A stretch of DNA of 60,111 nt, filler included, from Fonticula-like sp. SCN 57-25 (taxonomy: Eukaryota), in the NCBI GenBank assembly GCA_001724245.1. It is 10 parts of 10 records of this genome, joined end to end, with 100 filler letters (N's around TTAATTAATTAA, not from the genome) between each part and the next. Parts side by side here need not be neighbours in the genome. Positions count along the whole stretch, not along the records: positions 35,204 to 40,779 come from MEDX01000676.1; 9 more parts are not named here. One strand, 5' to 3'. Shown one piece after another: positions 1 through 57,843 of the stretch. Position 1 is the first letter of the stretch. Every line of letters starts with the position of its first letter. Both the position numbers and the translations under genes were made by a program. Below the pieces are notes generated by a model, which did no database searches, was not told the origin of the DNA, and worked only from the letters and a program-made list of their open reading frames with translations.

Positions 1-262
1 GGGGTCAACTGGTGGCGGGAAAGTGACGCTTGAAGCGAGTGGAACGGGCGTGGATGCGATTGGTGAACACGTGACTGATGTGGAGAGTGCGAGAAGGTGA
101 TTGGGTGATGGGGTGATTGGTGAAGTGACGGTGATTGGTGGGGAAGTGGAGAGGCCGAGAGTAGAAGGGGAGACACTCGTAACGGCGACCCAGCTGGCGG
201 CTATATTGGAACAAGGGTAAGTAAGTAAAGGGCAAAAAGAGGAGTGAAAGTGAAAGTGAATA

Positions 263-308
<46 letters not shown>

Positions 309-2303: not shown

Positions 2304-2843
2304 CCCGATGGTCAACTGAAGAAAGTGGTCTCTAGGAGACGCAGCGCAGCTTCGGGCAATTTTTCCGAAGTATGTCAACAAGGGCGCACCAATCATGGAG
2401 CAGGATTCAGGGTAGACTACCCGTAAATGTGTCAAGGTAGATCAAAATCATCACCATGGATGGTATTTTTGGATGCTTGGCATTCTCGGCCTTCCCTTGG
2501 CGGCTTTTGGTCAACTTTGATAGTGTCGCCCAATAAACATATCCGTAGTATTATAGTGATATAATCTGTTATGTATAGTTGTTGACAGTGAATATGAAGC
2601 AGTATTTATCGTATTCATGTCATCAATATGGCGGGAAAATTCCTCTTTTGTTCACTTTTATTCATATCATACCAATACAACCCCACCAACAGGAAAACTA
2701 CTAATACACTAATACACTAATACATACCAAATAACAATACTACCAATCACACTAATACAATATCATATACCATACATTCATATATTCCACTTTTACCACT
2801 TTTTCCCGCCAACATTCCCGCCAATCACAACAACACACACGTC

Positions 2844-4790
2844 TTACTCCTCTCCGTCTCCACATGCCGCCTCAACGCCAACAAATTTTCCGCCTCAATA
2901 TTAAATACTCGCATATGAACACGTGTTGATATTGCCACTTGAGGAACACGACGCATATCATACAAGGCCACGTGGTTGAGTGAAGGCAAACTTAATAATG
3001 ATTTGATGGCGATTTCGCTGACATTATGACAGCCGTCCAGTTCAATAGAGGTTAGGAGGGGGCAATGGGAGGCGAGGTGGGAAATGCCGTCGTCGGTTAC
3101 CTTGAGGGGCAGTTAGTGGAAGTGCAAATTGAAACACAATTTGCACACACATAATGACGTACACAACTACACATATACACATTGTCATACATGAACCTAA
3201 TTATGTACATATATAATGTCATACATATGTACGTACATATGTACGTACATACACAATGTCATACACAATAACACACAAAACAATCTTAATCACACACACA
3301 CACACACACAATCATATATACTTAATACACACACTTACCATCCATATTCACAATCACACTCAATATACTTTCATATTTACCTTTCCATTACTCTTTCCCT
3401 TTCCTTTCCATTCACGTACATGTTCACAATAAGACAACACGACATGCCTCAACCCCCTCGCCGTCACCGCCATCGCCCTCACACTCTTATCAGTCAACCG
3501 AGTCACACACTCAAGGTCCACGTGGGTCAGTTTTGGAAGGCACTTGAGGAGCACTTCGAGGCCAGTGTCGGTCATTTCGTCGCAATCGGATGCTTCGAAT
3601 ATTTCGAGGTGGGGTGTGGCGGTGGCGAGGGCGAATAGGGAGCGATTAGTAAGTAGTGTGCAGCCTGATATCTTTAGATCTAGATAAAAGGTTAGTAATG
3701 GGAATGAAGAGATGAATGAGTAATATAATAAATATGGCATGAAACTTTCATTTCACCATACAACACATCATTGAATATCAAATAGATATACACAATAATA
3801 CTCATTTAATATCATGAATATGAACACATAATCAATACTACATACACACACAATCATACTTCATCATCATACACATCATCATCATACAATCATCATACAC
3901 ATCATCATACAATCATACACAATCATCATCATACATCATCATCATAAACAATCACTATACACATACACAATCATCATCATACCATCATACACAATCATCA
4001 TCATACAATCAACACACATCATATTCCATCCCCCTTATCTCCATTCGTACCTCTAATAGAAACCGGTTTCGCCGCACAAAACCTCTCAATTCCCCCATCC
4101 GTCACCCTCGCACACCTACTCAAATTGACACTCTTCAAGCACTTCATTCCACCAATCACAGCCAAGCAGTCATCCCTCACCGACCCACACCCAGCAAGAT
4201 CAAGTACCCTTAAATAAAAGCAGCCACGTGCGATCGCCTCGGCGCCGACACGTGACACGAGTGACGCGCTCCAGGCCAATGAGAGCTCTTCGAGTGCGGC
4301 CATGTGGCGCAGTGGCACCAATGCGGTTTCGTCGGCGCGGCTGAGGGCACTTAAGGAAAGGCGGCGGACACGTGGGCAGTGCGCGGCGAGAAGGGACATG
4401 CCACGTGCGGTCACGTGATATACGCGGCCGAAGGAAATGTCCTCGACGTTGGGGCAGGCGGAAAAGAGGGAAATTTCGCGGTCGCTGAGCTGTGGCAGGG
4501 CTGTGACATGGAAGGTGCGGAGATGGGCGCCGCTGCGGGCGGCGGCAAAGTGGGCGCGCGGGATGAGGGGGGGGGAAGGAGATGATGCGCCAGAGGGAGG
4601 CGTCGTAGGTGAGGGAGCGCCAGGTGCGGCTGACGGTGGCGATGCGCGCGAGATCACCGCGGGAGAGATGCGAGAGGATCTGGATTGATGTCTCGCGCGG
4701 CAAGAGGCCCACAATGTCAATGGCGGATTCGGAATCAAGATGATCCGACGGCAAAACATCAATGGAAAAGAGAGAGTCGTCGGCCGTCAT
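2844..4790 (-). CDS. F-box/LRR protein (FBXL type)
   Basis: F-box LLPRETSIQILSHLSRGDLARIATVSRTWR; Cys-containing LRRs (LDLAGCGSVRD, VNLSRCARVTDGG); exons 4790-4051, 3679-3420, 3100-2844; apparent frameshift near the G9 run 4567-4575. Confidence 0.88.
3850..4020. repeat. Degenerate (CATCATACA)n low-complexity repeat in intron
   Basis: Visible tandem catcatacac/aatcat units. Confidence 0.85.
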
Positions 4791-5470: not shown

Positions 5471-6348
5471 TCATTCACCAATCAATGCCCTCGCCATTGG
5501 CACATTATAAGCGAAATCCCAAAACGCAACCGTCCCATCCACCGATGCTGACACAACACCCGTCGCGCCCACGTGGACACAATACACTCTACTTCCGTGC
5601 CCCGCAAGTGTATGCAATAGCCTTTTCCCATCCCATATCTTTATAGTAGCATCATATGACCCACTTGCTATACGACGCGCATCCGCATCAACACTGCGCA
5701 CAATATCCACGTGGCCGCGTAGCACACGATGATCACGTGATCTCGTGCATATAACTCTCACGTGACCATCACCTGATCCGGTGATGATCTGGCCGCCGTG
5801 GGCGCGGATGCTGGCAACGCCACGTGGGTGCGGAAAACGGGTAGGAGCGGCCACGTGGGTGTGAGGAAGGACGGCCACGTGGCGGTCACCACTTGCAGAA
5901 TAGATAAAAAATGTGTCTAAATCGAGTGCGTTTACGGCGGCGGTGTGGAGGTTAAGGACGCGGAGGAGGGATTGGCGGGAAAGTGACCACTCGCGGATAC
6001 TAAAAAAGGAAATGAGAAAAGTGGAAATGAGAAGGAAAAGATAAAGGAAAAGAGAGATAAAATGTGGATATGAGTTTGATAAAGTATGTATACAGATACA
6101 GATACAGATATAGATATAGATATAGATATAGATAATATTATAGATACAGATATAATATAGATTCAAATACAGATATAGATACAGATATGAACAATGTCAT
6201 GCAAATATCAAATATAATAATAATAAAGTGCGCACGTGAGGTCTGCTCCGCCCGTGACTAGTTTGTCACCAGCGTACTTTAGGCACGCAACGGCGCCAGA
6301 ATGTCCGCGCAGAGAGTAATATTTATAGTCATCATGACGGTCCCATAC
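5471..6348 (-). CDS. WD40-repeat protein, C-terminal part (FBXW/beta-TrCP-like)
   Basis: GH...WD repeats (LRGHVDIVRSVDADARRIASGSYDATIKIWD); exons 6348-6236, 5999-5471. Confidence 0.85.
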
Positions 6349-6358
6349 CTACAAAGAG

Positions 6359-6458
6359 NNNNNNNNNNNNNNNNNNNNNNNNNNNNNNNNNNNNNNNNNN
6401 NNTTAATTAATTAANNNNNNNNNNNNNNNNNNNNNNNNNNNNNNNNNNNNNNNNNNNN
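6359..6458. other. Artificial contig linker; identical linkers at 11906-12005, 18389-18488, 23810-23909, 29096-29195, 35104-35203, 40780-40879, 45882-45981, 51482-51581
   Basis: N44-TTAATTAATTAA-N44 with stops in all six frames; genes are truncated at each linker. Confidence 0.98.
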
Positions 6459-7821: not shown

Positions 7822-8203
7822 TGTATTCATATTATATTCACACGATCAATACACGGATCATTACGACATATGATGATAGATAGAGATATTGTGGCCATTT
7901 CTTATGATATGGTATGTGATCATGGTATGTGATATGATATGGCTATGGCACGTGATATAGTATGGATATAACAGTGGTATCTTGAGTGGGCCAAAGAGTA
8001 AAAGTTTTCGTCCATGTCACGTGATCATATGGTGTGACTTTAATTGCAAAAAACTATTGTTTTATTATATCCAAAAACGCATACTTACACTGATACCCCA
8101 AAGCAAAAAACTACCAACAATGCTACCAAAATATACTACCTACCATGACATCATCACAAAACATGACGTCACCACTGACACCATCATGACGTCATCACCC
8201 ACA

Positions 8204-9933
8204 TCACATGATGATTGCCGTGGCGTTGTCCGCGTCCATGACGACATCCTCATTCTCGCGCATCATCAGCGACACCATGCGCGTCCCAACCACCTCACAA
8301 TCAATCTGCATATGCTTGGCCACGTGCTCACCATCAGATGACGTAATCACTTTTCCTTGATTCTGCGGAATGAGCAGCGACAGCCGCGGCGAGCCGCCCG
8401 CGCCCTTTTCATTGGGCATCACGGGCATGGCGTGCGCGCAAAACATGTACGCAGTGTCGTCGCGCGGCTCAAACGGAACAGAGGCGGGCGAAGAGCCCAC
8501 GTGGACGGCGACGGATGTGATTGGCTCGTTTTTGGGGGAGGCGCGCAGCGATTGGTCGAGCCACGATCGCAGGTCGACCGGCTCGACGGGTGTGTGGCTG
8601 TCGGTCAGGTTGGCCGCCAGCGAAGCCGACGCCAAAGTAGCAGAAGCAGATGATGACGTAGACGATGACGTAATCACAGGCGACGCAACAGATGACGTAA
8701 TCACATTTGAGGCGGACGTCACTGCCGGGGGGGCCGAAAGGAGCGGCACGAGGGCGGACGTCGGCGGCGGCGACGCACTCGACGCCGCGCCGGAAATAGA
8801 AAGAATCGATCGACCGCCGCCGATCACGTCATTCTCGGCCAATGGGCGCTGCAGGATGGTCGGCGCGGCGATCACGAGCAGCGCGAGGCCCATGAGCGCG
8901 ACGATCTGGGACGCGCGCGCGAGGGGGCGGCGGCCGCCCTGGGGGGGGGGGGCGAGGGACCCCCCGGGCTGCATAGTGGCCGACGCGCCGCCGCTTTCGA
9001 GGACGGCCACGCGGCGGCGGAGCGATTCGTTTTCGCGGCGGAGCGCGTCGACTTGCTGCTCGAGGGTGGCGAGGTACTCTTTGTGGCGCTTGCGAGAGAG
9101 GCTCGCGGCTTCGCGGTTCTTGATCAGGCGTTTTTCGCGCTTGAAAGACATATTCTCTGTGGAAAGAGGGGTAAGTAAAAGGGAAAGTAAAGAAAAAGCG
9201 ATGAAAAAGTAAAGAAAAAGACATCAAAACAACAACAACAAACAAGAAACGATCATGATCACGAAGCCACTGATGCCACCGATGATCCCCACCATCTTAT
9301 CCCGCCATGACGCATCCCAAAAAGTCGTCTATAATAACGTACGCGGTGGCGACTGCTCGGGCTTGAGCATCATCCCGGCCTGCTGCTCGTCCATCGTGCC
9401 CATCATCGGTGCATGCTGCATGGGGATCACCGGGAACTCTGACTTCATCCCCGCGAGCGTCCTGTTGCCGCTCTCGGGCGACGATGCCGGCGAGTACTCG
9501 ATCTTTACGTAAGAGTCCGATCCCGCCGAGTCGCTGTCGGACCACGCGAACGTGGAGGGCGAGTCGGCCGATGGCGCGGCGGCATTCTTGTAGAGGGCCT
9601 CATCCGAAGCGGGCAAAAAGGGGTCGGTAGTGTCCGCAACATCGTCGCAAAAAACGGAACTGCTCAAAGGAGAGCTAAAAAAGTCATTTCCGTCGTTTTC
9701 GGGAGAGCGCGGGACCGAATATTCACTGCAGAGTGAGAACAGAGATGGGCAATCATCAGCAAAAGAGAAAAAAAAAAGGTGGCGAAAGAGGAGGAAATGT
9801 CGTACGCAGGAAACCCGCCAAACGAAACCTTTTAATAAAATAACGTTAATAACGGCAAGAAAAAAAAGAGCACGAAAAAGCAGCGCACCTCGTCCAGGTG
9901 GTGGAAAAGGGGATTCGCGAACCCGCTATCCAT
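8204..9933 (-). CDS. ATF6: ATF6-like ER-membrane bZIP transcription factor
   Basis: Exons 9933-9889, 9828-9806, 9659-9343, 9156-8204; bZIP KREKRLIKNREAASLSRKRHKEY, TM helix, S1P-like site RSIL, lumenal motifs RDDTAY, PRLSLLIP and MQIDCEV. Confidence 0.85.
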
Positions 9934-11196: not shown

Positions 11197-12005
11197 GCCA
11201 GCGATCCCTAGTATTCAACACTCTACCGACCCAGTCGATGGTGATTTGTAAGAGGCCTCGTGTTGTTTGCCGGCCTGCCGACCACAACGAGCGACCCCAA
11301 GCGACTAATTAAATATCAAAAACAGATCGACGCGCCCACACGCTCTCGAAGCGCGCGTCGCGTCGACGCACCCACACGCACGGAAACCGCGACGCGTCGA
11401 CCCTTCCCTACCTCGATCCAAAAACGGCGGCAAATCGAGCGGTCACGGCCATCCGTCCCCGCCGCCAGCCACTCGCCGCTCGCCGCGTAACCGCGTACCA
11501 GCACGGTCAACGTCGCGGTGACAGCCCACGGTCAACCGCCGCCTCGCTTCACCACCCCTCGGGCACCCCCTAAAATCCCCGTCGCAGGTTCCGATCGGAA
11601 TCGCGTCGGCGCCAACCGAAACGTGTCTCGGTATCAAACCGCCCCTTTTAGTAGGCGGGCACTGCAGTCAGTTGCCCGTTTCAGTGATCTTTGCAGGCAA
11701 GGCGCGTGTTCACCTTGCTCCCTAACAAAGGACCAGTAATGGAATAGTCCCCGAGGTGCACTTCTATCGAGGAGGGGCTGCTTCGCCACCATCGGCTCTT
11801 CTGTTGTTTTGACACAATCGCCGACCCTGATCGGCCCAATCAGCGGGCGACGGCCGACGGGGGAGCCAAAAAAGGCAGGTGAGGGTGCGGAATCGCATGC
11901 GGGTTNNNNNNNNNNNNNNNNNNNNNNNNNNNNNNNNNNNNNNNNNNNNTTAATTAATTAANNNNNNNNNNNNNNNNNNNNNNNNNNNNNNNNNNNNNNN
12001 NNNNN

Positions 12006-18388: not shown

Positions 18389-18488
18389 NNNNNNNNNNNN
18401 NNNNNNNNNNNNNNNNNNNNNNNNNNNNNNNNTTAATTAATTAANNNNNNNNNNNNNNNNNNNNNNNNNNNNNNNNNNNNNNNNNNNN

Positions 18489-23809: not shown

Positions 23810-23909
23810 NNNNNNNNNNNNNNNNNNNNNNNNNNNNNNNNNNNNNNNNNNNNTTAATTAATTAANNNNNNNNNNNNNNNNNNNNNNNNNNNNNNNNNNN
23901 NNNNNNNNN

Positions 23910-25675: not shown

Positions 25676-27121
25676 ATGCTGATGGGCTCGTCGGCGACGC
25701 TCGCCTTGGGCGGCATATCTGTTCGTTCGCTACAGGGTGGGCACCTGGACCTCTTGGGTCTTCAGCGGGCGACGTTGTCCGATGTGGTGCCGTCATCTCG
25801 CCAGGACAAATTGGCGTTCCAGGCGAGCAATCCGCTCGCATTGCGGCCTTCATCGCTGCTTTCCCTGTCATCATGGTCAGTTTCCGTCAAGAAGAAGAGC
25901 TCGACGCAGTGGTCGGGAATGCGGGTTCCGGGCCTCGTCAATCTTGGCAACACGTGCTTTATGAACAGCATCTTTCAGGCGCTCGCAGCCATGCCGGGGT
26001 TCAGCGATTTTGTGCGTACGGAATCTTCTCTTTATGACAAGCCTATTCTGTCCAAGCTTCACAGCCTTCTTTCCAAGCTGAATGTGTACTCGCCGCCGTC
26101 GTCGGAGGTGGCCGTAATCAATCCGGTCGCGCTCGTTCGGGCACTCTGCGGGGGTCAATTGCCGCAGTCGCAGCAGGATGCGCACGAGTTTCTTAACCAC
26201 ATTGCGAGCACGCTATCCGACGAACTTTCTGCCGCGTCCCAGCGGTCAGGAGGGGCGCTGCTCTCGCTCTCATTCCTCTCATCCGCGTCAATGCTCGATG
26301 CCGCTTCGGACAAGCTGTCAAGTTTTGTGGTGCAGCGCGGAGGGATTACGAGCGAGAGTGCGTCGGTGCCGGTTGCAGTGCAGTCGCCAATGGAGGGCCT
26401 CATGACATCACGCATTAGCTGTGAGTCATGCGGCTACACAACGCCGGCTCGATGCGAGGCGTCGCACATTCTTTCCCTCTCGCTGCCGCGGCACTCTGCT
26501 TCGCCGCTTTCGGGAGGCTTATCAATGGGCCGCCTGCTTGACAGCCACTTTGTGCGGGAAAAAATTGACTCTTATCACTGCCCGCGCTGCACCCTTCTCT
26601 CGGCCGAGGCGCGGCTGTCGCGGTCTTCTGCCGCCAGTGTCGAGGGTTCCCCCACCCAAGATCAGCTGGAGCGCGTACGCGCTGCGCTCAAGGCTCATGA
26701 CGACGCGAGCGACCTTCAGGCACAGCTTCCCAAGGTGCACCGCCGCGCCACGCGCCAGGCGCACTTTTCGCGCGTGCCAAAGTCGCTCTGCATTCATCTC
26801 AGTCGCGTGCACTTTGACGGCGGGCAGTTATGGAAGAACGAAGCCGCTGTGGTGCCAGCGGACCCCCTCAACATGGCGCCGTTTGTCCGCGTGGGGATGC
26901 CCGCGCCGAACCCCAAACTGTACCAGCTTGTCGCCCTCGTGGTGCACCTGGGGAACGAGGCGAGTGGTCACTTTGTAACATATCGGCGACTGGGCACCAA
27001 GGACCAGAACAGCAAGGATCAGCATGTTTGGCTCCGCATTTCGGACGAAATGGTCCGCTCGGTCACGCAAAAGGAGGTTTTCGGCTCGGAGGCGTACTTG
27101 CTATTTTATGAACGAATTTAG
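25676..27121 (+). CDS. Ubiquitin-specific protease (C19; USP30/Ubp16-like)
   Basis: Cys box GLVNLGNTCFMNS, QQDAHEF, His box HLGNEASGHFVTYRR, ISDE, YLLFYER. Confidence 0.9.
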   Translation: MLMGSSATLALGGISVRSLQGGHLDLLGLQRATLSDVVPSSRQDKLAFQASNPLALRPSSLLSLSSWSVSVKKKSSTQWSGMRVPGLVNLGNTCFMNSIFQALAAMPGFSDFVRTESSLYDKPILSKLHSLLSKLNVYSPPSSEVAVINPVALVRALCGGQLPQSQQDAHEFLNHIASTLSDELSAASQRSGGALLSLSFLSSASMLDAASDKLSSFVVQRGGITSESASVPVAVQSPMEGLMTSRISCESCGYTTPARCEASHILSLSLPRHSASPLSGGLSMGRLLDSHFVREKIDSYHCPRCTLLSAEARLSRSSAASVEGSPTQDQLERVRAALKAHDDASDLQAQLPKVHRRATRQAHFSRVPKSLCIHLSRVHFDGGQLWKNEAAVVPADPLNMAPFVRVGMPAPNPKLYQLVALVVHLGNEASGHFVTYRRLGTKDQNSKDQHVWLRISDEMVRSVTQKEVFGSEAYLLFYERI

Positions 27122-27317
27122 AATGGCCGCCGCAGCTCTGTTTCGCTCTCTTTGTTCCCTGCTTGGGGAACATGTGTTGCTTGTTATTTGTAGTACGTGT
27201 ACATTTGGTAACTGTAATTTAACGCTCTTTATAAATTGCAACTCATCATCATTAACAACACAACGCTTTCCCAATAACATGTAAACGGTGTCCAACACTA
27301 AAAGCTACACATCAGCA

Positions 27318-29095: not shown

Positions 29096-29195
29096 NNNNN
29101 NNNNNNNNNNNNNNNNNNNNNNNNNNNNNNNNNNNNNNNTTAATTAATTAANNNNNNNNNNNNNNNNNNNNNNNNNNNNNNNNNNNNNNNNNNNN

Positions 29196-29776: not shown

Positions 29777-30037
29777 AATGTTTACCTCTTTCTTTTGTTT
29801 TGATTGGTCGCCTGAGGAGATCTTTCCTGTTGTTCGATGTCGTTTACTTTTCGTGTGCCGCTCGTCGTCGGATATTATAACTACCACGCCGTGCCCTTTG
29901 TCATTCCCAATACAACCCATTCTAATCACAATTGATGCACTTTAAGGAACACGTTCAACTGAAAATGGCACATGTATGGAGATACTTACTGCTTTTATTG
30001 TTAAAAATCGAATTCTTTTCTGTTGCAATCACAAAGT

Positions 30038-35103: not shown

Positions 35104-35259
35104 NNNNNNNNNNNNNNNNNNNNNNNNNNNNNNNNNNNNNNNNNNNNTTAATTAATTAANNNNNNNNNNNNNNNNNNNNNNNNNNNNNNNNNNNNNNNNN
35201 NNNTATGTCCCATATTACCCCATCATCTTCACCCATATAACCCCACAATTTTTACTTAC

Positions 35260-36517
35260 CTTTTTGCAATTGGAAAGGTCGATGCACATCAACTGCCTAC
35301 ACGCCTTACTAAGCATAATCACGCCGCCTTCCGTCAATTCCCAACACGAATTCATATCAAGCACTTGAACACGTGACGCGAAGGTTGCAATGTACTTTAG
35401 GGCGCCGTCGCTCACGTGCCAGCAGTTGCGGAGCGAAAGGGAGCGAAGGGATTGGCCGGCAAAGCGGCAGACTTCTTGAACGGCTGTTTGGTCACGTGAT
35501 AGTGAGAGTGAGTGGAAATGCTAAAAATAGATTAGAAGCGAACCGGCGTCGGTGACGTCCTTGTTGACGACGGAGAGGTCGATGGAGGACTGGAAGCGGT
35601 CGGTGGTGATGAGGGCGCGCCAGGGTTTGCTGACGCGGCGGCAGACAAGCAAGTCCCTGAAGGGGAAAAGTGGCAAAAGGGATGAAAAGAGGAAAGAAAA
35701 TGGGGTAAAAGGGACGAAAAATGAAGAAAAATGGATGAAAAATGAAGAAAATGGGATGAAAATGACACAAGAATGGAACAAGAATGGAATGGAATGCAGA
35801 CAAAAAGTGATCAAATAATAAAGAAATTTGAACAAATTCAACACAATATAAACAAAAAGAAGGCAAATTCACACAATTATAACCAAGAATAAAACATTAT
35901 TCAAACGTGTTAATACTTGTTTTTCTTCCTCCTCTTCAACCGCACCTGATATTGAGGAAGGAAAGAATGTGTTGGATGATGTTTGGCTGCAGCAGATCAA
36001 ACGGCCCGTTCACCTCCGCCGCCTGCGGCTCCGCCTTTGACACCTGGCTCAGTTTTGACCCGTTGGCCGCGGCCGGCGCGGCATCCGATGACGCGGCATC
36101 ACCGGGATCCGTCTTTGACCGCGAGATGTCGGTGAGATGCACATCGGTCCACACGGCGATGCTCGCGCGGCGGCGGCGCGTGCCTTGACCGCGCAGGGTG
36201 GCTACAACGGGGTTGCCGCTCAGGGATGTCGCGCGATCCTCGGTGATGGCCGCGGCGGTGTCGGATTTGGCATCAGCATTGGGATTGGAATCAGTCTTGG
36301 CATCAGCTTTGGAATCTGCCTTGGAATCTGCCTTGGCATCGGCCTTGGCATCCGCATCACCGCCTTCCACTTTAACGGGAACTTGCTCGGCTGATGCTGG
36401 CGATGCCGGCCTCCCGCTCGACTTTGCCGGCGCCATGGCGCGATGCTGACCGTCGTCGTCGGCATTCACCGCCTCATTCGAAGGCACGGGATCCTCGGCC
36501 TCGGGACCCGGCATCAT
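35260..36517 (-). CDS. F-box/LRR protein, 3' partial
   Basis: F-box LQPNIIQHILSFLNI|RDLLVCRRVSKPWR; LRRs LSLRNCWHVSD, IDLSNCKK. Confidence 0.82.
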
Positions 36518-37081: not shown

Positions 37082-40000
37082 ATGCTGTCGCTGCGAGTGC
37101 GGGCCGCTGCCCTCGCGCCATCCCGCCGCGCGCACCTCGCCATCGCCGTGACTCCGTCTAAGAATGACTGGGAAACGCCCGGGGACGAGCTTCGTTCAAG
37201 GTACGATGCCGTCATTGTCGGCGGCGGCCACAATGGCCTTGTAGCGGTACGGCCCTTGATGCCCTGCATCCTGCCCGCTAATGTGCGTCACAGGCGTGCT
37301 ACCTTGCCAAGGCCGGCAAGTCCGTCTGCGTCCTCGAGCGCCGTCACGTCATTGGCGGCGCCGCCGTCACCGAAGAGATCGTCCCCGGCTACAAATTCAG
37401 CCGCGCCTCTTACCTCCTGAGCCTCTTTCGCCAGAGCATCATTGACGAGCTCGATCTCAAGCAGGTCGGATTCCGCGTTCATCTCCGTGATCCCTCCTCC
37501 TTTACTCCCCTTCGCGATGGCAGCGGCTACTTACTTTTAGGCTCTGATGCGGCCCTCAATCACGCCGAGATCAGCAAGTTTTCCCGCAAGGATGCCGACG
37601 CCTACGCATCCTACGAGACGATGCTGGGCCGCATCGCCGCCGCGATGGACCCGCTGCTCGACAGCGCGCCGCCTTCCCTGTCGGGCTCGCTCGCCTCGCA
37701 GGTGCGCGCGGGGATCCCGCTCGCGCGATTCGCCTCGCAGCTCGGTCGCGACATTCCAGATGCGCTGCGGATCATGACGGCGCCGGCCGCGCAGATCCTG
37801 AACGAGCACTTTGAGAGCGACGTGCTCAAGGCGACATTGGCGACGGACGCAGTGATTGGTGCATTTGTCGGGCCAGAGACACCGGGCAGCGCGTACGCAG
37901 AGGAGCGGAAAGGGACAAGGAAACGGACAAGGATAGGGGCAAGGGATAGAGAAGGAGTAGGGGATAGTGGGTATTGAATCTCATTCCCGCCATCATTCAA
38001 TGACGTAATGATGTATGCTGATGATGTCATATGTGTTAATGGTGTGAATATGCCTTGTACATTGACCATGTATCATGTGTATCATGTATCATTACCATGT
38101 CACAAGTACCATACCCATGTATGATCATCATGGATTGTATCATGTATCATTACCATGTACCATATATCATACTCATGTATCATGTATCATGTATCATAGC
38201 ATCATTCTTCTATCTTTCTCACTCCCTTCCTCTCTTTTAGTTATGTCCTCTTCCATCACGTGATGGGCAACCTCGAAGGCCGCCGCGGCGCCTGGGGCTA
38301 CGTCCAAGGCGGCATGGGCGCCCTTTCACTCGGCATGGGCGCCCTTTCACTCGCCCTCGCCCGCAGAGCAAAGTCACTCGGTGTCCACGTGGCCATCAAT
38401 GCCCCTGTCAGCCGCATCCATCTCGACAATAATCACGTGACTGCTGTTGAATTATCCTCTAGTGGTAATGTCTCTAGTGGTAGTGTGTCTGGTCGTTCGA
38501 TAGAGACAAAGTTGGCCATGTCGAATGCGACGCCTCACGTGACCTTTAAAGAGTTGCTTGATGCTGATAGGGTGGATAGTTTGAAAGGGTTAAATAGGGC
38601 GATTGGGGCGATTGATTATGGGTCTGCTACGATGAAGATTAATGTGGCTGTGAGGGGGTTGCCGGTGTTTAGGGCGCTTTCAGGGGGGGGGATGTATAGG
38701 GGGGCATATGAGGGGATGGCGAAAGGTACGAAGAAAATATAATGGGTAGTATGGGTATGAGTATGAGTATGATGTGTAGTATGAGTATGAGTATCATGAG
38801 TATGAGTATCATGAGTATGAGTATGAGTATGAGTATTGGTATGAGTATGAATATGAGTATGAGTATGAATATGGGTATGAGTATGAGAATGAGTATGAGT
38901 ATGAGTATCATTGATGAGTATCAGTATCATTGATGAGTATCATTGATGACCATAAGTATCATTGATGAGTATGAGTATCATTGATGAGTGTTATGGTGAT
39001 GAACATGATCATGAATAATGATCATTGACTATCATGATGAGTATCATTGAGTATCATGAGTATTATGAGTATCATGTATCATTGAGTATCATTGAGTATC
39101 AATTGACACATGTTACATATATTATATGATATTCCTCTCTCTTCATCTACTAACCCTCCTTCTCTTCCCTTAGGTACTCCCCCTAATCACCCCCTTCCAC
39201 ACCACCAATGCACAACACACTTTGAAGAACACGTGGACGAAATCCAATCTGCCTATGTAGACGCACTATCTGGATGCCCCTCAAGTAAACCTGTTATTGA
39301 AATGTGTGTGCCTTCTGTATTGGATAGGACAATTGCACCTGAGGGTGACCACGTGGTCAATCTGTTTGTGCAGTATGCGCCGTATAGGCTGGCCAATGGG
39401 AGGTCGTGGGATGACGAGAAGGAGGCATACGCCGATAAGGGTACAAAGGGAGAAAGGGAATGGGAACTGGTCACGTGAGAGTATGTGTCACGTGATAGTA
39501 GTCATGTGATAATAGTCATGTTTATGTTTATTATTGTTCATGTCATGGTGCATGTGCTTATGGTGTCATTTTATGACACTTTTATGTCACTTTATGACAC
39601 TTTTATGTCACTTTATGACACTTTTATGTCACTTTTATGTCACTTTTCACATGTCCCATATGATCATAACATACTACATTCACCATATTCACCCATCTTA
39701 CCCTGTTTCTTCTCTTTTTTCATAGTCTTTTCCATAATTGACTCTTATGCCCCCGGCTTCTCCGCTTCGGTCGTCGGCCGCGACATTCTCAGCCCACTCG
39801 ACCTCGAACGCACTTTTGGACTCACTGGCGGCGTACGATTGTTGCTATTTATAGTATGTTATACTAACCATATGCAATCTGCAAACATATCTACCATCAT
39901 ATCATATCTACAATGTGCCATCATATCATGCATATCTACATACGTATCTACTATCTACAATCATATCATACATATCTACTATCTACAACCATATCTACCA

Positions 40001-40295
40001 TCATATCTACATTCATATCTACAATTATATCTACCATCATATCTACTCTTCTATCTGCTCTACTCTACTACCCACACTAACATATATGCAATCTGCAAAC
40101 TGACTCTAGAACATCTTTCACGGCAGCATGGGCGTCAGTCAGCTCCACGCCCTCCGCCCACACAACACCCTCGCTGGTCACGTGACACCCATAAAAGGCC
40201 TTGCCCTATGTGGCAGTGGGTGTCACCCAGGGGGGGGTGTCATGGGGGCGGCGGGAAGGAATGCGGCAAGGGCGGTCATCGCAGAGGGGTGGTAA
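37082..40295 (+). CDS. PYROXD2: PYROXD2 (phytoene desaturase-like FAD oxidoreductase)
   Basis: [59 protein letters not shown]; several long low-complexity introns. Confidence 0.92.
38750..38910. repeat. (ATGAGT)n microsatellite in intron
   Basis: Tandem atgagt units. Confidence 0.92.
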
Positions 40296-40586
40296 TTGGT
40301 CATGTGATCATGTGGTCATGTGATCATGTGGTCATGTGATCATAGCGGATACTGTATGGTCATACTGTACTATACTGTATGGTCATGGTGTGTTTCATAC
40401 TGTGTACTATACTGTGTTCAATATATGCCCATAGGGTACTCACATGACCCATATTGCCCCATATTATACCATATTATACCATATTGACTCATTACTATGC
40501 CATAATAAACACCTATATTATATAACCTGCAATACATACTCTTCTCTTCCTTCTTCTCTTTCTTCATTTTTGCTCCTTCTTTCCCT

Positions 40587-40779
40587 TTAAACCCGTAGTG
40601 CCTGCACCTTTCCGTCGTACGCCAGTGACACCCAATCCGACTGCGCCGCCGACCACACCAAATAGTTCACCTCCGAGTCCGCCTTGTACTCCAAAATGGG
40701 CTCCTGCATGGTCGCCTTCATCTGGCTAATGTCCCACACGAGCGCGCGGCCGTCGTCGCCCGCCGTGCAAATGTGGCAG
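40587..40779 (-). CDS. DCAF7: DCAF7/WDR68 C-terminus, 5' partial
   Basis: CHICTAGDDGRALVWD...PILEYKA..EVN...W...DW...QALRV*. Confidence 0.85.
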
Positions 40780-40879
40780 NNNNNNNNNNNNNNNNNNNNN
40801 NNNNNNNNNNNNNNNNNNNNNNNTTAATTAATTAANNNNNNNNNNNNNNNNNNNNNNNNNNNNNNNNNNNNNNNNNNNN

Positions 40880-45881: not shown

Positions 45882-45981
45882 NNNNNNNNNNNNNNNNNNN
45901 NNNNNNNNNNNNNNNNNNNNNNNNNTTAATTAATTAANNNNNNNNNNNNNNNNNNNNNNNNNNNNNNNNNNNNNNNNNNNN

Positions 45982-46653
45982 CGGCAAGTCGTCTTTCTAT
46001 GAACGGCACCTGAAGGCAGCTGGATATGTCCACGTGAATCAGGATACATTAAAGTCACGTGATCAGTGTGTGGCTGCGGTCAGACGTGCTATTTCGGCCG
46101 GGAAAAGCGCAGTCGTCGGTACGAAGAAATATTATTATTGTTATTGTGATATTGTTGTGTGATTATAGAGGGTTTTGTGTTGTTAATGTATGGTTATTGT
46201 GTCATTTTTGTGTCATTTTTGGTTACTTTTCATTCATTTTTGGTCATTTTTCATTCATTTTTGTGTCATTTTGTGTCATTTTTCATTCATTTTTCACTCA
46301 TTTTCTCCACTTTTTCTCACTTTTCCCACTCTTCCCCACTCCTCTCAGATAATACAAACCCGAGTGAAGATCTGCGCGCCCTCTACATCTCCCTCGCCCG
46401 CTCCCTCAACATCCCCACTCGCTGCTTCCATTTCCAAGCCACTGAAGACCAAGCACGCCACATGAACATTTACCGTGAACTTGTATCAAATGGTGTGCGT
46501 AAGCGTGTGCCTGCATTGGCGTATGCGAGTTACAAGTCGAGATTTCAGAGGCCGCAGGTGTCGGAAGGGTTTAAAGAGATAAAGATGATTAATTTTGTGC
46601 CAGAGTTTAAGACAGAGGGGGAAAAGAAGCTTTTTATGCAATACTTGCTGTAA
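45982..46653 (+). CDS. PNKP: PNKP kinase domain, 5' partial
   Basis: GKSSF...YVHVNQDTL...V|DNTNP...P.VSEGF. Confidence 0.88.
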
Positions 46654-47040
46654 TAACATTGAATAATATGGAATAATATGCGTAATATCAGGGTCATATC
46701 ATTTATGGAATAAGGTAAATATAAGGATAATATGGTGAGAATATGTATGGAATACTCTATAGAAGATAGTATGGTCATATCATTAGGATACTCTATTGAC
46801 TATCAGAGGCAATATCATACATACAAAACATGATCTTGTTATCAACTAGTCCATAATGGGTAATCTTATCATAGCAGATAGAGGTGTGCTATTCTATATC
46901 ATAGGCAATATCACTGTGATATTCTTTTTAATATCTATGGAATATCATTTATCACTGTGATACTCTATGGAATATCATATATCACTGTGATACTCTATGG
47001 AATATCAATTATTGTGATACACTTTTCCCAATAAAGCGCT

Positions 47041-48385
47041 TCAACTGCTGTCACAGCCATGTGACATNAGCTTGCTTACCGCCTCACTAACAGCACGACA
47101 AACCGCCCTCGTGACGTCATCAGTCGACGCCTCCCCCCCAATGTCACGTGTCCTTACACCACTTTCAAGAACACGTGACACAGATTGTTCGATTAAACGC
47201 GCCTTTTCGGGCTCGTTAAACGCATCGAGCAGCATGGCGCCCGACAGGATGGCGGCCACGGGGTTGGCGACGCCCTTGCCTTCAATGTCGGGGGCGCTGC
47301 CGTGGACGGGCTCGCCCATAAAGTGGCGGTCGCCGGTGTTGAGGCTGGGGACGAGGCCGAGGCTGCCGACGAGGGCGGCGGCGGCGTCACTAGAAAAAGG
47401 GTGAGTAGGGCTAAAAGGGAAGGAAAGGGGGAGGAAAGGGAAGAAAAGGGGCTGAAAAGTAACAAAAAGTGGCTCAAAAGTAACTGAAAAAACACCAAAA
47501 AGTAACAAAAAGTCATCAAAAAGTATCAAAAAGTCATCAAAAAGTCATCAAAAAGTATCAAGAATGCAACTTGTGCATCAACAACAATACCCTCACTCTA
47601 ATTACACTCAAATTTTCACTCAAGTATGACCATAAAACATCCACTACGTACGAGATGATGTCGCCGTAGAGGTTGGGCGCGACGACGACGTCAAAGTGGG
47701 TCGGCTCGCGGAACAGCCTGTAGATCATTGCGTCGACGAGCTGCTCCTCTGTGCGGACATCCGGAAACTGCTTGGCGACATCGAGCGCCGACTCTCTAAA
47801 CAGCCCGTCGGTGACGCTGAGCACGTTTGCCTTGTGCACGATCGTGACGAGGCTCGGACGACCGAGCTTTTGGGCGCGCTGCTGGGCGATCGTGTAGGCG
47901 GTGCGGGCGATGCGCGTGGATGCGCGCTCGGTGATGACGCGCGTGGCGGTTGCGCGCTTGGAGCCGTCCGCCGCCTTGCCCATTTCTTCCTGCTTGACGT
48001 AGAGGCACTCTGTGTTTTCGCGGATCGTCACCATGTCGAAGCGCTTGGCGGCATCCCGCACGGGGCGCACGTTGGCGTACAGATCAAGCTCCTTGCGGAG
48101 GCGGACGATCGGCGACGAGTAGCCTTCAACGCGGTGCGAGGGGGAGCTCACGGCGCCGAAAAAGCTGCCGTGGCACTGCGTCTTGAGCGTGCTAACGGTC
48201 ACGTCGGGGAGCGCAGTGCCCGTGCGCTGGAACAGCTCAAAGCCGGCCTCGAGCGGGATGTAGTCAAAGGGGGCATTCGCGGCCTTGAGCACGGCGATCG
48301 CAGCAGGGACGACTTCCTTGCCAATGCCGTCGCCGGGAATGACGCCAATAACATAGCGGCCGCCCTTGGTTGCCGCGCGCTGCAT
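47041..48385 (-). CDS. LYS12: Homoisocitrate dehydrogenase (beta-decarboxylating dehydrogenase family)
   Basis: [59 protein letters not shown]. Confidence 0.82.
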
Positions 48386-48537: not shown

Positions 48538-50820
48538 ATGTCGCGGCCGGTGGACGTGCATCGGTGCCGCTTCTTTGAGGTGCAGCCTGCGGCCATCAAT
48601 GCGATCGCGTGGAGCAGCTCGTCTCAGCGGGCGGCCGTTTCGCGGTCGGATAATGATATTGAAATATGGGCGCGGAATCCGGAATGGCATGTTGAGCGGG
48701 TGCGGTTTTCCTCAGGATTGTTGGGAATCGCGACTTGTCAGTTGAGGCGCTTGCCTTTGCTCCGGACGGCCGTTTGTTTAGCGCCGGCCATCATGCCTCG
48801 ATAGTAGAATGGGATCTTGTTGCCTCGCGGCCTCGCGTCACCGTCGATTCCTTTGGCGGCGCCGTGTGGTGCATGGCTGTGAGCCACAGCGGCTCGCATC
48901 TCGCCGTCGGCTGCGAGGACGGCTCCGTCCGCGTCTTTGACATTAGCGACGGCGGCCTTTCCTACCAGCGCACGCTCGAGATGCAGCCCGGCCGCGTTCT
49001 GAGCCTCGCCTGGCATCGCTCTGATCGCGTCCTTGTCGCCGGCACGGCCAAGGGCCATCTCCGCAAGTACAACGTCACGAGCGGCCGCCTCGTGCAGCGC
49101 ATCAACGTCGACTCTGCCGCCCGCCAAGAGTCTGCGCTCGTTTGGTCCGTCGTCGTTCTCGCCGACGGCACGGTCGTGACGGGCGACTCGCTCGGCCACG
49201 TCCAGTTTTGGGACGGCGAGCTCGGCACGCTTCTCCAGAACGTCGCGACGCACGAGGCCGACGTGCTCTGCCTCGCCGCGGCGGACGACGGCAGCGTCGT
49301 GTTTGCCTCTGGCATTGACAGCAAGGTCGTCCAGCTGACGCCGCTCTACGAGGGCGGCGAAAAAGATGCGGCTGTCGGCGCGCCGGCCCGCCGCGTGTCG
49401 CGCTGGCTCATCACTGCCGCCAACCGCGCGCACACGCACGACGTCCGCGCGCTCGCCCTCTGCGGCTCGGACCTCCTCCTCTCTGGCGGCGTCGACACGC
49501 AGCTCATCACATACACGCTGTCGCACTTTCGCAAGCCGACCGGCGCCGTCCGCATCAACCCCTTGCGGTCGGCGACGTCGCTCGTGTCCGTCTCTAATGC
49601 GCGCCGCATCGTGTGCCTTCAGTACCCGCACCAGCTTCAGCTCTTCCGCGTCGGCAGCGCGCTCGCCGGCGACGCCTCAATGGGCGAATCTGACGCTGTA
49701 GAAGTGCTCGACAGCACGCCGCGTCGCAAGCTGGCCGAGATTTCGCTCAAGGGCGGCCGCAAGATTGTGTGCGGCGCGATTGCCCCGAGCGGCGACTGGG
49801 CCGTGGCTGGCGACGGCGTTCGTCTGCGCCTTTTCCGCATTCACCACGACGCGCCCGGCGACGGCGTCCGCGTCGAGCGCGTCCCGCACGCCATTGACGG
49901 CCTCGACGCCACCGTCAAGGTCGCCTTTTCGCCCGACGGCGGCCGCCTTGTCGCTGCCACTGCGACGCGCGCGCTTCTCGTCGTCGACCTTGCCTCGATG
50001 GCGGTTCTGCGGACAGTCGAGCGCCCGGACGGCGACGCCCTGCGGTCGCTCGAAGTGTCGGCCGACGGCCAGTGGTTCGCCGCCGGCGATGTAAAAAACA
50101 ATATCCATGTATATTCGCTCGAGGGCCACGCGTCGTGCGCGCTGCCCGTCTTTGATGTCCCCCACGTGGCCATTGCGTTCCACCCCGTTGGGCATCACCT
50201 GCTTGCTGTCGTGTGCCTTCAAAACCGTCTGTACTTGTTTGACGTTGAGGAGCGGCGGCTGACAGAGACGTCGCGCGACGCGAGCGTGCGGCTGCAGAAT
50301 GCCGTGGCGCGCACGCACGGCGACAAGCAAGTGATTGGCGTGACGTTTAACCCGGCGGATGCGGCGTGTGTGCTCGCGTATGGGCTGTCGTTTATCTGCA
50401 AGGTGGATTTGAGGCGCGCGGTGGATAGGGTGGAGGTGGTGAAGAAGAGGAGCAGCAAGAAGAAGAGGGCGGAGGAGGAGGAGGGGAGTGAGGAGGAGGA
50501 GGGGACGGAGGCAAAGGAAAAGTCGACGGGAGTCACAACTGTGCGCAAAATTGTGGTTTTTGGGTGGTTTTTGGTGCATTTTGTGTACTTTTAGGGCAAA
50601 ATTTGCTCTTCTTGATGTCCAATTAGACCTTTTTATGTGCACTTTGCCATATTTTTGCCTCTTCGTCTCTTACTGACACGCGGTGTAGATTGTGCGCTAC
50701 CAGCCGCTGCTGTTTGTTGGCTTCACTGGACCCGACGAGATGGTTGCCGTCGAGCGGCCGTGGCTCATGGTGCTGCAGAACCTGCCGCCGCGCCTCGCCC
50801 GCCACCGGTTCGGCAGCTAG
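48538..50820 (+). CDS. UTP4: U3 snoRNP protein UTP4 (WD40)
   Basis: [20 protein letters not shown]-terminal VERPW..V...LPP; frame anomaly at 48700-48716. Confidence 0.9.
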
Positions 50821-51333: not shown

Positions 51334-51581
51334 GTCGTGGTCAGCAGTTTGGGGCTGAATCCACCGCTGATTATTAATAGTCCGCCCCGGACAATTTTGG
51401 CGCGCATTTTCAGATTTTCGAGCGGGAAACCTGCCATGGTGGATGCCGAGTGGAAGCCCGTGACGCGGTATGCACCATTCCNNNNNNNNNNNNNNNNNNN
51501 NNNNNNNNNNNNNNNNNNNNNNNNNTTAATTAATTAANNNNNNNNNNNNNNNNNNNNNNNNNNNNNNNNNNNNNNNNNNNN

Positions 51582-55647: not shown

Positions 55648-57080
55648 ATGGTGCACGGAGCTAGCGCTGTGGAGCAGCTGTCGCTTGCCGCGACGGGCGT
55701 CCGCCAAGAGTCGGACACGATGGGCAAGGTGCGCTTCATATGAAATATTGCTTTTCACGCTCACTTTTTGCCTGTTTTAGATTGATGTCCCTGCCGATCG
55801 CTACTGGGGCGCTCAGACGCAGCGCTCGCTTCACCACTTTGCCATTGGCGAGGACCACTTTACGCGCCCTCTCCTGCGCGCGCTCGGCATCCTCAAGAAG
55901 GCGGCTGCCCTTTCGAACGCCGAGCTCGGCCTCCTGCCCGCCGACAAGCGCGACCTGATCGTCCGCGCCGCCGATGACGTGGTCGAGGGCCGCCTCGACA
56001 GCCACTTTCCTCTGTACGTGTGGCAGACCGGCAGCGGCACGCAGACCAACATGAACGCCAATGAGGTCATTTCGAACCGCGCTATTGAGCTGAGCGGCGG
56101 CGTCGTCGGGTCCAAGAAGCCGATCCACCCCAACGATGACGGTACGGCCTAGGGGGATGATCGGCAGTGGAAGCTGACGATGATCGCGATAGTCAACAAG
56201 AGCCAGTCGTCGAACGACACGTTCCCCACGGCCATGCACATCGCCGCCGCGGAGGAGACCGTCAAGCTCCTGATCCCCGCCATCACCGAGCTCCGCAACG
56301 CGCTCGACGCCAAGGCCAAGGGTGCGTTATTATTTGGATCCTTGTGTTGTTGCTTTTTTGATACTTGTTGATGTATTTTGTATTGTTTTTGGTGCTTTTT
56401 TGAGCCAAATGTGCTACTTTTTGTGCAAAGTATGCTGATTTTTTTTATGACTTGTGCTCCATTTTTGTATCATATCACTCATTTTGCTTACTTTTCCCTC
56501 CATTTTGACTCATTTCTTCCCAGAATTCGCGTCCATTGTCAAGATTGGCCGCACTCACCTGCAGGACGCGACCCCTCTCACTCTCGGCCAAGAGTTCTCC
56601 GGCTACGTCGCCCAGCTCGACCTCTCCCTCGCGACCATCAACGCCGCCCTTCCCCACGTCTACGAGCTCGCCCTCGGCGGCACAGGTCCGTTTTTGTTGA
56701 CTTTTTCGAATGTTTTTTGAGTGGTTTTTGAGTGGTTTGTGAATGTTTTTTGGGCATTTTTTGCTTGTTCTTAGTGTTTTTACGTCTAATTTTCGTCTTT
56801 TCATGCGTATTTTACTCACAATTTCACCATAGCTGTTGGCACTGGCCTTAATGCGCACCCCCGCTTCGCTGCCGTCGGCGCCTCCCACATTGCCACCCTC
56901 ACCGGCCTCCCCTTTGTGTCCGCCCCCAACAAGTTCGCCTCCCTCGCCGGCCACGAGGCCCTCCTCGCCCTCCACGGCGGCTTCAAGACGCTCGCCGGCG
57001 CCCTCAACAAGATCGCCAACGACATCCGCTGGCTCGCGAGCGGCCCCCGCTGCGGCCTCGGCGAGATCAGCATCCCCGAA

Positions 57081-57121
<41 letters not shown>

Positions 57122-57545
57122 GACGCAGAGCGAAGCGCTGACGATGGTGTGCGCGCAGGTCATGGGCAATGACGTTGCGGTGAATGTCGGCGGCATGTCG
57201 GGCAACTTTGAGCTGAACGTGTTCAAGCCGCTCATCATTCGCAATGTGCTGCACTCGGCGAGGCTCATGGCCGACGCGGCGCGCAGCTTCCGCGAATTCT
57301 GCGTCGAGGGAATCACGGCGAACAAGGAGCGCATTGATGACCATCTGCACAATTCGCTGATGCTGGTGACGGCGCTGAACCTGCACTTGGGGTATGACAC
57401 GTGCGCGATGATTGCAAAGAAGGCGCACAAGGAGGGGAAGACGCTCAAGCAGGTGGCGGTGGAGACGGGGTCGCTCACGGCGGAGCAGTTTGACGAGTGG
57501 GTCAGGCCGGAGAAGATGATCGGGCCGTCGGCAGAGGGGAACTGA
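55648..57545 (+). CDS. FH: Fumarate hydratase class II
   Basis: [50 protein letters not shown]. Confidence 0.96.
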
Positions 57546-57843
57546 GACGGTGATTAGTTGAGAGTGGACTTGGAGTGTCATGTATGGCACGAATTTATCA
57601 ATAAACATGGGTCAAACATGGAGAATATGAATTGTCATATCAACATGGCAAGTATCAGCATAGGCATCAAAATGGCATTGGTCATATCTTTTTGCCTTGA
57701 ACATCATTGGACATGGCAATAATATGGTAAATATCCATGTCAGTGTCAAGTGTAGCAAATTGATACCATATGTGTGTTACTGGGCATAATTTTCATTGAC
57801 AAATCTACAAGCTAGAACAACAGCGACGGCGCTGATTACTAAT

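Follow-up and report, generated by a model that had tools for sequence, protein, structure and literature searches.

PYROXD2 and its AT-rich spacers

We analysed a stretch of 60,111 nucleotides (nt) of DNA from Fonticula-like sp. SCN 57-25, hereafter the window, and all statistics refer to this one 60-kb window of about ten contigs of 5–8.5 kb each. The sequence is eukaryotic, with GC-rich exons and AT-rich introns and 3′ regions of about 31% GC. Our focus is the interval 37890–40590, which lies entirely inside one contig (35204–40779) and holds exons and introns of a plus-strand PYROXD2 gene, followed by the island between its stop codon and that of a convergent WD-repeat gene. The 203-residue translation of 37282–37890 matches PYROXD2 proteins (the best named matches are 53–63% identical), and the exon model was placed by tblastn with six PYROXD2 homologues. 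Along this and other transcripts of the window the G/C strand asymmetry alternates in sign, and this alternation is real. The features of the locus are as follows.

37294–37892, plus strand: exon A; third positions pass from C in 10–11 of 15 to G at least equal to C over the last ~280 nt
37893–38240, plus strand: intron 1, GTACGC...AG, 348 nt; skew flip near 38052
38241–38725, plus strand: exon B, placed by tblastn
38726–39173, plus strand: intron 2, 448 nt; skew flip near 39096
39174–39440, plus strand: exon C; C- and A-ending codons at the start (G at 0–1 of 15 third positions), G-ending at the end (G at 8 of 15)
39441–39725, plus strand: intron 3, 285 nt; donor GTACAA; RNA fold z = −3.9
39726–39832, plus strand: exon D, 107 nt, C-rich all along and without a switch; third positions of its 35 in-frame codons C 21, G 1
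39833–40109, plus strand: intron 4, 277 nt, G-poor all along, skew down to −1.00
40110–40295, plus strand: last exon, stop TAA at 40293–40295, CACGTG at 40179
40296–40586, no strand: convergent-stop island, left half G-rich with (TGGTCATGTGATCATG)n, right half C-rich and pyrimidine-rich
40587–40589, minus strand: stop codon of the WD-repeat gene
38257, 38386, 38434 and 38536 (all in exon B), 39230, 39350, 39472, 39489 and 40179: CACGTG sites of the locus

Plus-strand GC skew, taken in 100-nt windows, goes from +0.39/+0.45 (37850–37999) to −0.59 (38150–38249), +0.6 to +0.94 (38550–38899), −0.76 (39100–39199), +0.54 (39400–39499), −0.65 (39650–39749), −1.00 (39950–40049), +0.48 (40250–40349) and −0.77 (40500–40599). 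A preliminary description of this DNA had noted that exon B starts with C-ending codons and ends with G- and T-ending ones. The counts agree: third positions of the first 60 codons hold 38 C and 7 G, and those of the last 57 hold no C, 32 G, 20 T and 5 A. The last exon likewise starts with 11 C and 2 G at third positions and ends with 2 C and 9 G.

The introns are ordered arrays. In intron 1 the 5′ splice site is followed by a purine- and G-rich tract, next by (CATGTAT)n arrays and lastly by a pyrimidine tract; intron 2 passes from C-free (GTATGA)n arrays to GTATCA-type units, CTAAC 24 nt from the end, and AG. Intron 3 opens with TCACGTGA/TCATGTGA units, followed by an array with 11-, 21- and 32-bp periods and a pyrimidine tail. 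Intron 4 carries (CATATCTAC)n arrays, and its branch-site region is directly repeated on either side of the array.

Several further observations concern this locus. Exon B contains a perfect 21-bp in-frame tandem duplication at 38310–38353 (GMGALSL twice); it is missing from some metagenome contigs and from L001, the closest metagenome locus, and is therefore polymorphic. The (GTATGA)n array at 38738–38923 has a summed contig depth of 1342, compared with about 10–40 elsewhere, so the repeat is abundant in the sample, whether from other parts of this genome or from other organisms. Around intron 2, some 16 codons (38695–38725 and 39174–39190) have no counterpart in PYROXD2 homologues; they are Gly/Met/Arg-rich before the intron and Pro/His/Thr-rich after it, about six of them at the start of exon C. 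Either intron-edge sequence was absorbed into the exons or the protein was reshaped by composition. The PYROXD2 AATAAA (about 40503) lies inside the C-rich half of the convergent-stop island, which is the 3′ side of the other gene, and the two 3′ regions overlap.

Mirror-image skew flanks long AT-rich islands

AT-rich islands were defined by GC below 45% in a 60-nt smooth, which called 77 islands, 73 of them with N-free 100-nt flanks. The mirror-image G/C skew claimed around such islands in the preliminary description was borne out, and the pattern goes further than was described there, the plus strand being G-rich to the left and C-rich to the right. At islands of at least 200 bp, G exceeds C in 19 of 22 left flanks and C exceeds G in 18 of 22 right flanks, with a mean flank skew difference of 0.54 (Wilcoxon p=2.6e-5, n=22). 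The difference is weak at 100–199 bp (mean 0.18, p=0.018, n=18), and over all 73 islands it increases with island length (Spearman 0.61, p=1e-8). Nor is the skew equally present around short introns, for which short AT-rich islands served as proxy: islands below 100 bp show no flank effect (mean −0.05, p=0.42, n=33). Flank composition (G 0.37, C 0.20) indicates that G stands in place of C, with A and T level, and the flank skew has faded by 150–200 bp from the island. Some islands, 27093–27313 and 29789–30036 (GC 0.39–0.40), have low skew. The layout along a transcript equals its own reverse complement and therefore appears as a mirror image on the plus strand in either gene orientation.

Codon usage reverses within exons

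Near exon ends, the last ~150–250 nt and the start of the following AT-rich spacer are nearly C-free on the sense strand, and codons end in G or T; G is almost absent from the ends of long introns and from the opening ~120 nt of the exon that follows. The skew is present at synonymous sites and is not confined to the polypyrimidine tract. Among 4-fold degenerate sites of the curated exons, G outnumbers C by 192 to 90 in the 120 nt leading up to long islands, and C outnumbers G by 168 to 24 in the 120 nt that follow them (odds ratio 14.9, p=2e-35). Of 20 curated exons with at least 50 codons, 19 have a higher third-position skew in their last third than in their first. Third positions assigned by periodicity gave G 195 and C 65 in the left flank (0–120 nt) and G 57 and C 136 in the right (0–60 nt), in a low-powered test in which 6–12 windows per bin passed the filter and p<0.05 was reached in some bins only.

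The change reaches across codon families. C ends 71% of NNY codons in 13 control open reading frames (ORFs) and 35% of those in the last 60 nt, and CGN makes up 92% of Arg codons in controls and 30% in exon ends; near exon 3′ ends Arg and Leu change family, from CGN and CTN towards AGR and TTR. Codon position 1 is strongly shifted and position 2 weakly. Proportions of the bases other than C resemble those of controls, the missing C giving way chiefly to G at 4-fold sites and to T at 2-fold sites. Further than 400 nt from the exon 3′ end, 4-fold sites of affected genes have 355 C and 106 G, and those of the 13 control ORFs have 1223 C and 926 G. After long introns it is G that is depleted (24 of 269 4-fold sites in the first 120 nt vs 106 of 541 in the bulk), and NNR codons go from 77% G to 41–50% G. 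Searches of the main texts of open-access papers and preprints returned no account of such a switch of codon usage within an exon.

Anatomy of long introns and 3′ spacers

Donors read GT[AG]CG in 14 of 16 curated introns, the exceptions being PYROXD2 intron 3 (GTACAA) and the second fumarase intron (GTCCGT). Examples with C at +4 and G at +5 are found at 37893, 38726, 39833 and 46119 on the plus strand and at 4050, 3419, 1191 and 47651 on the minus strand. Departure from the usual GTRAGT suggests that the 5′ end of U1 is unlike the common one. Directly after the 5′ splice site lies a purine- and G-rich tract (first 60 nt 65–87% purine in 8 of 16 introns). Mid-intron, C-free arrays of (GTATGA)n, ATG/GT-rich units and T5-tract 11-mers give way to G-poor arrays, and the intron closes with a pyrimidine tract, sometimes CTAAC (15–33 nt from the 3′ end in five introns), and AG. 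In 15 of 16 introns the first third has more G than C (mean +0.58), and in 15 of 16 the last third has more C than G (mean −0.51); the flip point varies from the 5′ to the 3′ end of the island. A sense T>A bias runs across introns without a flip (last third 16 of 16, first third 11 of 16). AG-free stretches before the acceptor span 18–257 nt, at least 170 nt in 6 of 16 introns, because G is lacking. Among 13 long introns three are one-armed, two of them C-rich (PYROXD2 intron 4 and a WD-gene intron) and one G-rich (FBXL intron B).

The 3′ untranslated regions (3′UTRs) start as introns do, purine- and G-rich after the stop codon, and stay nearly C-free until AATAAA. Promoter regions of divergent genes, going by the island calls, do not form AT-rich islands. 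Arrays detected with Tandem Repeats Finder fill the islands, and array indels are many between the near-identical copies in the window, the metagenome contigs and L001.

Many intron arrays have periods of 10–11 bp and multiples of it (21, 32), on sense-strand T5 tracts; examples are 35675–35762, 39564–39647, 46197–46340, 47414–47561, 50553–50574, 56702–56752 and 9184–9229. Such spacing equals the helical repeat of DNA and is the kind seen in intrinsically bent DNA. Within the arrays at 46197–46340 and 47414–47561 the unit drifts from G-containing to C-containing.

CACGTG lies at C-to-G nodes

The hexamer CACGTG occurs 66 times in the window, 3.4-fold above the 19.4 copies expected, and no shuffle of 100 exceeded 33. 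Its context is mostly CCACGTGG or TCACGTGA (34 of 66). Inside exons it sits at nodes where the plus strand passes from C-rich to G-rich. There the right-minus-left skew averages +0.206 and is above zero for 46 of 58 sites (p=2.9e-5), whereas 2000 random draws of GC-rich positions averaged 0.042 and peaked at 0.144. CACGTG ranks first of 42 palindromic hexamers by this measure, and CCACGT, CACGTG and TCACGT hold ranks 1–3 of 1511 hexamers. Averaged over the sites, skew is −0.2 at −200 nt, reaches 0 at the motif and stands at +0.2 between +75 and +200 nt; the flanks show no palindromic arms. Density per contig tracks the number of long AT-rich islands. Coding segments contain 37 copies, 21 of them encoding His-Val, a pair observed 32 times against 18.3 expected (1.75-fold) and written CACGTG in 21 of the 32. 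The motif drives this dipeptide excess and is thus favoured even in the protein. This enrichment at C-to-G nodes is an element new here, absent from the preliminary description, and the association hints at a DNA-level component. Decayed copies (TCATGTGA) lie in arrays at island edges, 39487–39521 and 40297–40343.

Other genes in the window

The other examples named in the preliminary description also show the pattern: the PNKP-like last exon, the fumarase last exon, the UTP4-like 3′ end and the minus-strand ADAM and FBXL genes. Their positions are listed here.

201–4050, minus strand: ADAM-like and FBXL-like genes, same layout in their own sense
201–472, 801–1191, 3101–3419 and 3680–4050, minus strand: ADAM/FBXL introns
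2521–2811: tandem intergenic island of the ADAM/FBXL region
46119–46348, plus strand: PNKP-like intron, followed by the last exon (46349–46650) and then a convergent 3′ island
47391–47651, minus strand: intron of an isocitrate/isopropylmalate dehydrogenase family gene (Pfam Iso_dh), within 46119–47651
56833–57600, plus strand: fumarase last exon, followed by a short C-poor 3′UTR until AATAAA

The region 46119–47651 contains 11-bp-period arrays that drift from G-containing to C-containing units. In the fumarase last exon, third positions of the first 60 codons hold 7 G and 46 C, and those of the last 60 hold 44 G and 11 C. Pfam-confirmed ORFs with the switch are ADAM-like, zinc-finger, VWA, Iso_dh family, UTP4-like WD and fumarase genes. 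Four Pfam-confirmed, tightly packed ORFs (UCH, Snf7, myosin tail and E2) lack the codon switch and the block.

Between the convergent genes at 7822–8206, whose 3′ regions also overlap, the AATAAA of the minus-strand bZIP gene (about 8056–8074) is near the skew flip (about 8036). Palindromes resembling the cyclic AMP response element (ATGACGTCAT, TGACGTCA and ATGACGT) recur at island edges at 8162–8197, 47105–47125 and 37995–38010, and the bZIP gene (8207–9223, minus strand) adjoins one of these sites.

Sequence material and gene models

The contigs are separated by nine joiners, each of 44 N, TTAATTAATTAA and 44 N, which form a six-frame stop linker; neighbourhood across N blocks is therefore artificial.

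6359–6458, 11906–12005, 18389–18488, 23810–23909, 29096–29195, 35104–35203, 40780–40879, 45882–45981 and 51482–51581: N-block joiners

Isolated single Ns occur at 25275, 32397, 43935 and 47068. Gene models were built from homology, Pfam checks and reading. An ab initio finder and a junction scorer were dropped as too noisy, partly because codon usage shifts along exons. Frame shifts coincide with long homopolymers inside open homologous exons, at a G run of the minus-strand ADAM-like exon (about 573–589) and a C run, in sense, of FBXL-like exon 1 (about 4556–4579), and are probably assembly length errors in the runs.

The sequence occurs in metagenome runs. Metagenome contigs were short and of low depth, with few variants and indels, and gave no usable polarised spectrum. 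Eighty related metagenome loci were kept; L001 alone is close (99% protein identity), the others, at ≤53%, being unfit for polarising. L001 and the window have too few exon differences for polarising.

Origin of the asymmetry

A transcript-linked cause, tentative as it is on the sequence evidence, is placed ahead of a break-centred one and is the most likely reading. Positive GC-skew blocks, co-oriented with the transcript, would sit on each junction from exon to AT-rich spacer, over a baseline that is C-rich in sense. Selection on RNA processing may maintain these blocks, or they may arise through loss of C from the exposed non-template strand. Exclusion of G before and just after 3′ splice sites would add to the skew, and slippage of already skewed repeat units could amplify it within spacers.

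In all three tandem intergenic islands, sense skew is strongly positive until AATAAA and then mildly negative or flat on the promoter side; the 3′UTR halves reach +0.53 to +0.87, and the excess of G over C starts ~200 nt before the coding sequence ends and continues to AATAAA. Last exons of the PYROXD2, PNKP-like, fumarase, VWA and WD genes end in such a G>C block. The two halves of six convergent 3′ islands do not co-vary, so that each half tracks its own gene. Given the flip at AATAAA, the independent halves, the T>A bias that does not flip and the C-rich bulk, the pattern looks gene- and transcript-linked. Its landmarks are RNA landmarks, with G-rich tracts beginning at the 5′ splice site or the stop codon, and the signal is one of composition and not of sequence, as cognate intron arms are no more complementary than others and the donor word GTRCG shows no avoidance in exons. 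All genes are closely packed: two convergent stop codons lie 295 bp apart, spacers measure about 100–700 bp, and the window offers no sparse genes for comparison.

Several points weigh against this reading. A model of the R-loop type predicts neither the extra G depletion after long introns nor the G-free 3′ halves of introns, and the enrichment of CACGTG at C-to-G nodes is not accounted for. PYROXD2 intron 4, an exception to the two-armed pattern, and the WD-gene intron 6000–6277, C-rich throughout, lack a G-rich arm; FBXL intron B is almost wholly G-rich and lacks a C-rich arm. No precedent was found in the literature for positive skew at the 5′ splice sites of long introns. The tandem-island evidence consists of three cases and the convergent-island evidence of six. 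The curated exons were picked after the pattern was seen; the unselected tests are those of island flanks, flank base composition, periodicity-based third positions and CACGTG/hexamer ranking.

Recurrent double-strand breaks at the AT-rich islands are a possible cause, on sequence grounds a rather doubtful one. Resected 3′ tails would lose C by deamination and translesion synthesis (C>T, C>G), leaving the strand that points towards the island C-poor on each side, and break repair would expand the central tandem repeats. Such a process accords with the increase of the effect with island length (rho 0.61), with its presence around 3′ intergenic islands, and with the involvement of all site classes in order of constraint (4-fold sites, position 1, position 2). 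Island arrays are also indel-rich between near-identical copies, C is mostly replaced by G at 4-fold sites, as REV1-type C>G would give, and human hotspots provide a precedent in the excerpted text of Hinch et al. 2023 (PMC7615360). The preliminary description held that the polarity fits C deamination on 3′ single-stranded tails. Loss of C from whichever strand has its 3′ end towards the island does fit, but plain C-to-T change alone is insufficient, the replacement at 4-fold sites being mostly C to G; this state could still be an equilibrium of deamination with a GC-favouring force. Against breaks, however, the promoter sides of all three tandem islands are nearly unskewed, with the flip at AATAAA, the halves of convergent islands are independent, the A/T asymmetry is not mirrored, and two or three introns are one-sided. 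GC content at third positions is, moreover, lower beside islands, where biased gene conversion near breaks would raise it.

A further-reaching version is somewhat less likely still. The islands would be places of permanent breakage or single-strand exposure whose repair imprint, C>G and C>T, overrides codons and alters the protein for ~200 nt on each side, with CACGTG-bound sites as the points where tracts meet. If this were true, local mutation would be governed by the length and placement of introns, and codon usage would record the geometry of breaks and their repair.

An RNA-level role, in which the G/U-rich 5′ arm of a long intron pairs with its C/U/A-rich 3′ arm and draws the splice sites together, is unlikely as the general cause. 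The effect is limited to long introns, the purine tract after the 5′ splice site lies opposite the pyrimidine tract before the 3′ splice site, and bridging has been shown to work in fish introns (Lin et al. 2016, PMC4691745). Folding of 16 introns against shuffles, proposed in the preliminary description as a check, gave a divided answer. In 7 of the 16, 60–79% of predicted pairs cross between halves, compared with about 31% in shuffles, and three introns fall below −3 (z −3.4 to −3.9); yet the mean z is only −0.83, and 13 of the 16 lie within about 2.3 standard deviations (sd) of their shuffles. Pairing of intron ends by specific sequence, raised in the same description, is unsupported. Arms of 300 nt on each side of the flip were compared for 20 islands (three dropped for N or window ends): Smith-Waterman scores were 16.1 for cognate and 16.6 for non-cognate arms (sd 7.2), and duplex energies −115.2 and −115.4 kcal/mol, so cognate arms pair no better than non-cognate ones. 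The same C-poor block also occurs before 3′UTRs without a partner arm, 3 of 13 long introns lack one arm, and the skew runs on across exons. On the folding models, bridging is possible in some introns and is not the rule. The zipper stems of long yeast introns may be a further parallel to it.

Less probable again is an asymmetry set at the level of DNA, with a putative dimeric CACGTG factor, or nucleosomes positioned between AT islands that are themselves nucleosome-free, as a barrier on whose two sides repair or lagging-strand synthesis would be strand-asymmetric. The abundance of CACGTG (66 vs 19.4) and its place as top hexamer at C-to-G nodes speak for it, as do the symmetric skew profile around the motif, the His-Val excess (32 vs 18.3, 21 of 32 as CACGTG), the relation of motif density per contig to long-island count, and the many arrays with 10–11, 21 or 32 bp periods. 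Known barrier effects, however, reach tens of bases and not 200–300, long exons switch once near the 3′ end and not once per nucleosome, and the motif may simply accompany the node.

Very improbable is the exclusion of cryptic splice signals, in which C-free zones would bar GTRCG and CTAAC, and G-free zones GT and AG, leaving one usable donor, branch region and acceptor in a long repeat-rich intron: the GT[AG]CG donors (14 of 16), CTAAC near the 3′ end of five introns and the long AG-free tails suit it, but GTRCG occurs 5 times in the last 150 nt of 18 exons (1.9/kb) vs 17 times elsewhere (2.0/kb) and 39 times sense vs 43 antisense in control ORFs, C loss is seen in 3′UTRs as well, and base removal across hundreds of synonymous sites is far beyond what motif avoidance needs.

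Other candidates were rejected. Replication effects, an alternative in the preliminary description, are unfitting on a scale of a few hundred bases, as the sign alternates every 150–650 bp and not over the kb–Mb domains of replicons. The islands are not one repeat family, since comparison of the 28 islands of at least 150 bp gave 18 weak low-complexity high-scoring segment pairs (best 51 bits), which rules out a single mobile-element family. True inverted repeats around islands or CACGTG are ruled out by the arm comparisons, and avoidance of the GTRCG donor word by its like frequencies at exon ends and in the two senses. An assembly artefact is ruled out as well: skewed exons retain open frames and homology, and L001 has the same layout.

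Comparison with known systems

The known splicing-related codon biases of animals are slight and favour enhancer words near either end of an exon. Codon choice varies there, as here, with distance to the intron, but in the window one base is almost gone, the sign is opposite at each end, and the effect appears only beside long AT-rich introns. Introner- or miniature inverted-repeat transposable element-derived introns are likewise long, repeat-rich and lineage-specific-looking; in contrast to them, the 28 islands share no common family and have no terminal inverted repeats.

Closely spaced human genes have terminal GC skew, with co-transcriptional R-loops and termination or pausing, as given in the available portion of Ginno et al. 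2013 (PMC3787257). The proposed blocks are features of this kind, and the human case matches the 3′ part of the pattern. Both there and here, a sense G>C block lies at gene 3′ ends, begins before the poly(A) signal and occurs among tightly packed tandem and convergent genes. By comparison with that portion, the block described here is C-free and not just skewed, recodes ~200 nt of coding sequence, and also occurs at the 5′ splice sites of long introns, with a G-free block after it. The human skew is tied to R-loops, whereas the present one is known from sequence alone.

The (AC)m–(GT)n bridging introns of teleosts carry repeats that co-occur across introns and not across exons (Lin et al. 2016, PMC4691745, in excerpt). 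Simple repeats at opposite intron ends are complementary here too, although in composition only, and in about half of the introns the predicted pairs link the two halves. Set against the excerpted account, cognate arms here pair no better than others, fold stability is mostly ordinary, and the skew runs into exons and 3′UTRs, with 19 of 20 exons rising from C-rich to G-rich.

Human meiotic break hotspots have strand-asymmetric C>N changes in their flanks, with C>G as a REV1 signature, and show insertion and tandem-repeat instability (Hinch et al. 2023, PMC7615360, from the sections at hand). The islands resemble them, as those sections portray them, in their unstable central repeats, and their prominent C>G would compare with the replacement of C by G here. 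Composition mirrored about a centre, like the reverse-complement mutation classes of hotspots, is seen at 19 of 22 long islands but not on the promoter sides of the three tandem ones. The differences are that Hinch et al. measured mutations over ±2 kb, whereas we have composition only, over ±0.2–0.3 kb, and that promoter sides are weak here. None of the accounts of human terminal skew, teleost bridging introns and human hotspots describes, in these excerpts, a codon switch within exons.

Implications

Codon usage is commonly taken as a property of the gene or the genome. Here it reverses inside single exons, from C-ending to G- or T-ending codons, and the flip depends on which side the long AT-rich intron or 3′ region is on. 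A strong strand bias tied to such regions overrides ordinary codon choice. Gene finders with a single codon table fail in such exons, and a codon model truncated a PYROXD2 exon at the switch. These genes form a natural system for weighing a strand-specific force, for which R-loop and pausing biology, the splicing of long introns and break repair are the candidates, against translational and protein-level constraint.

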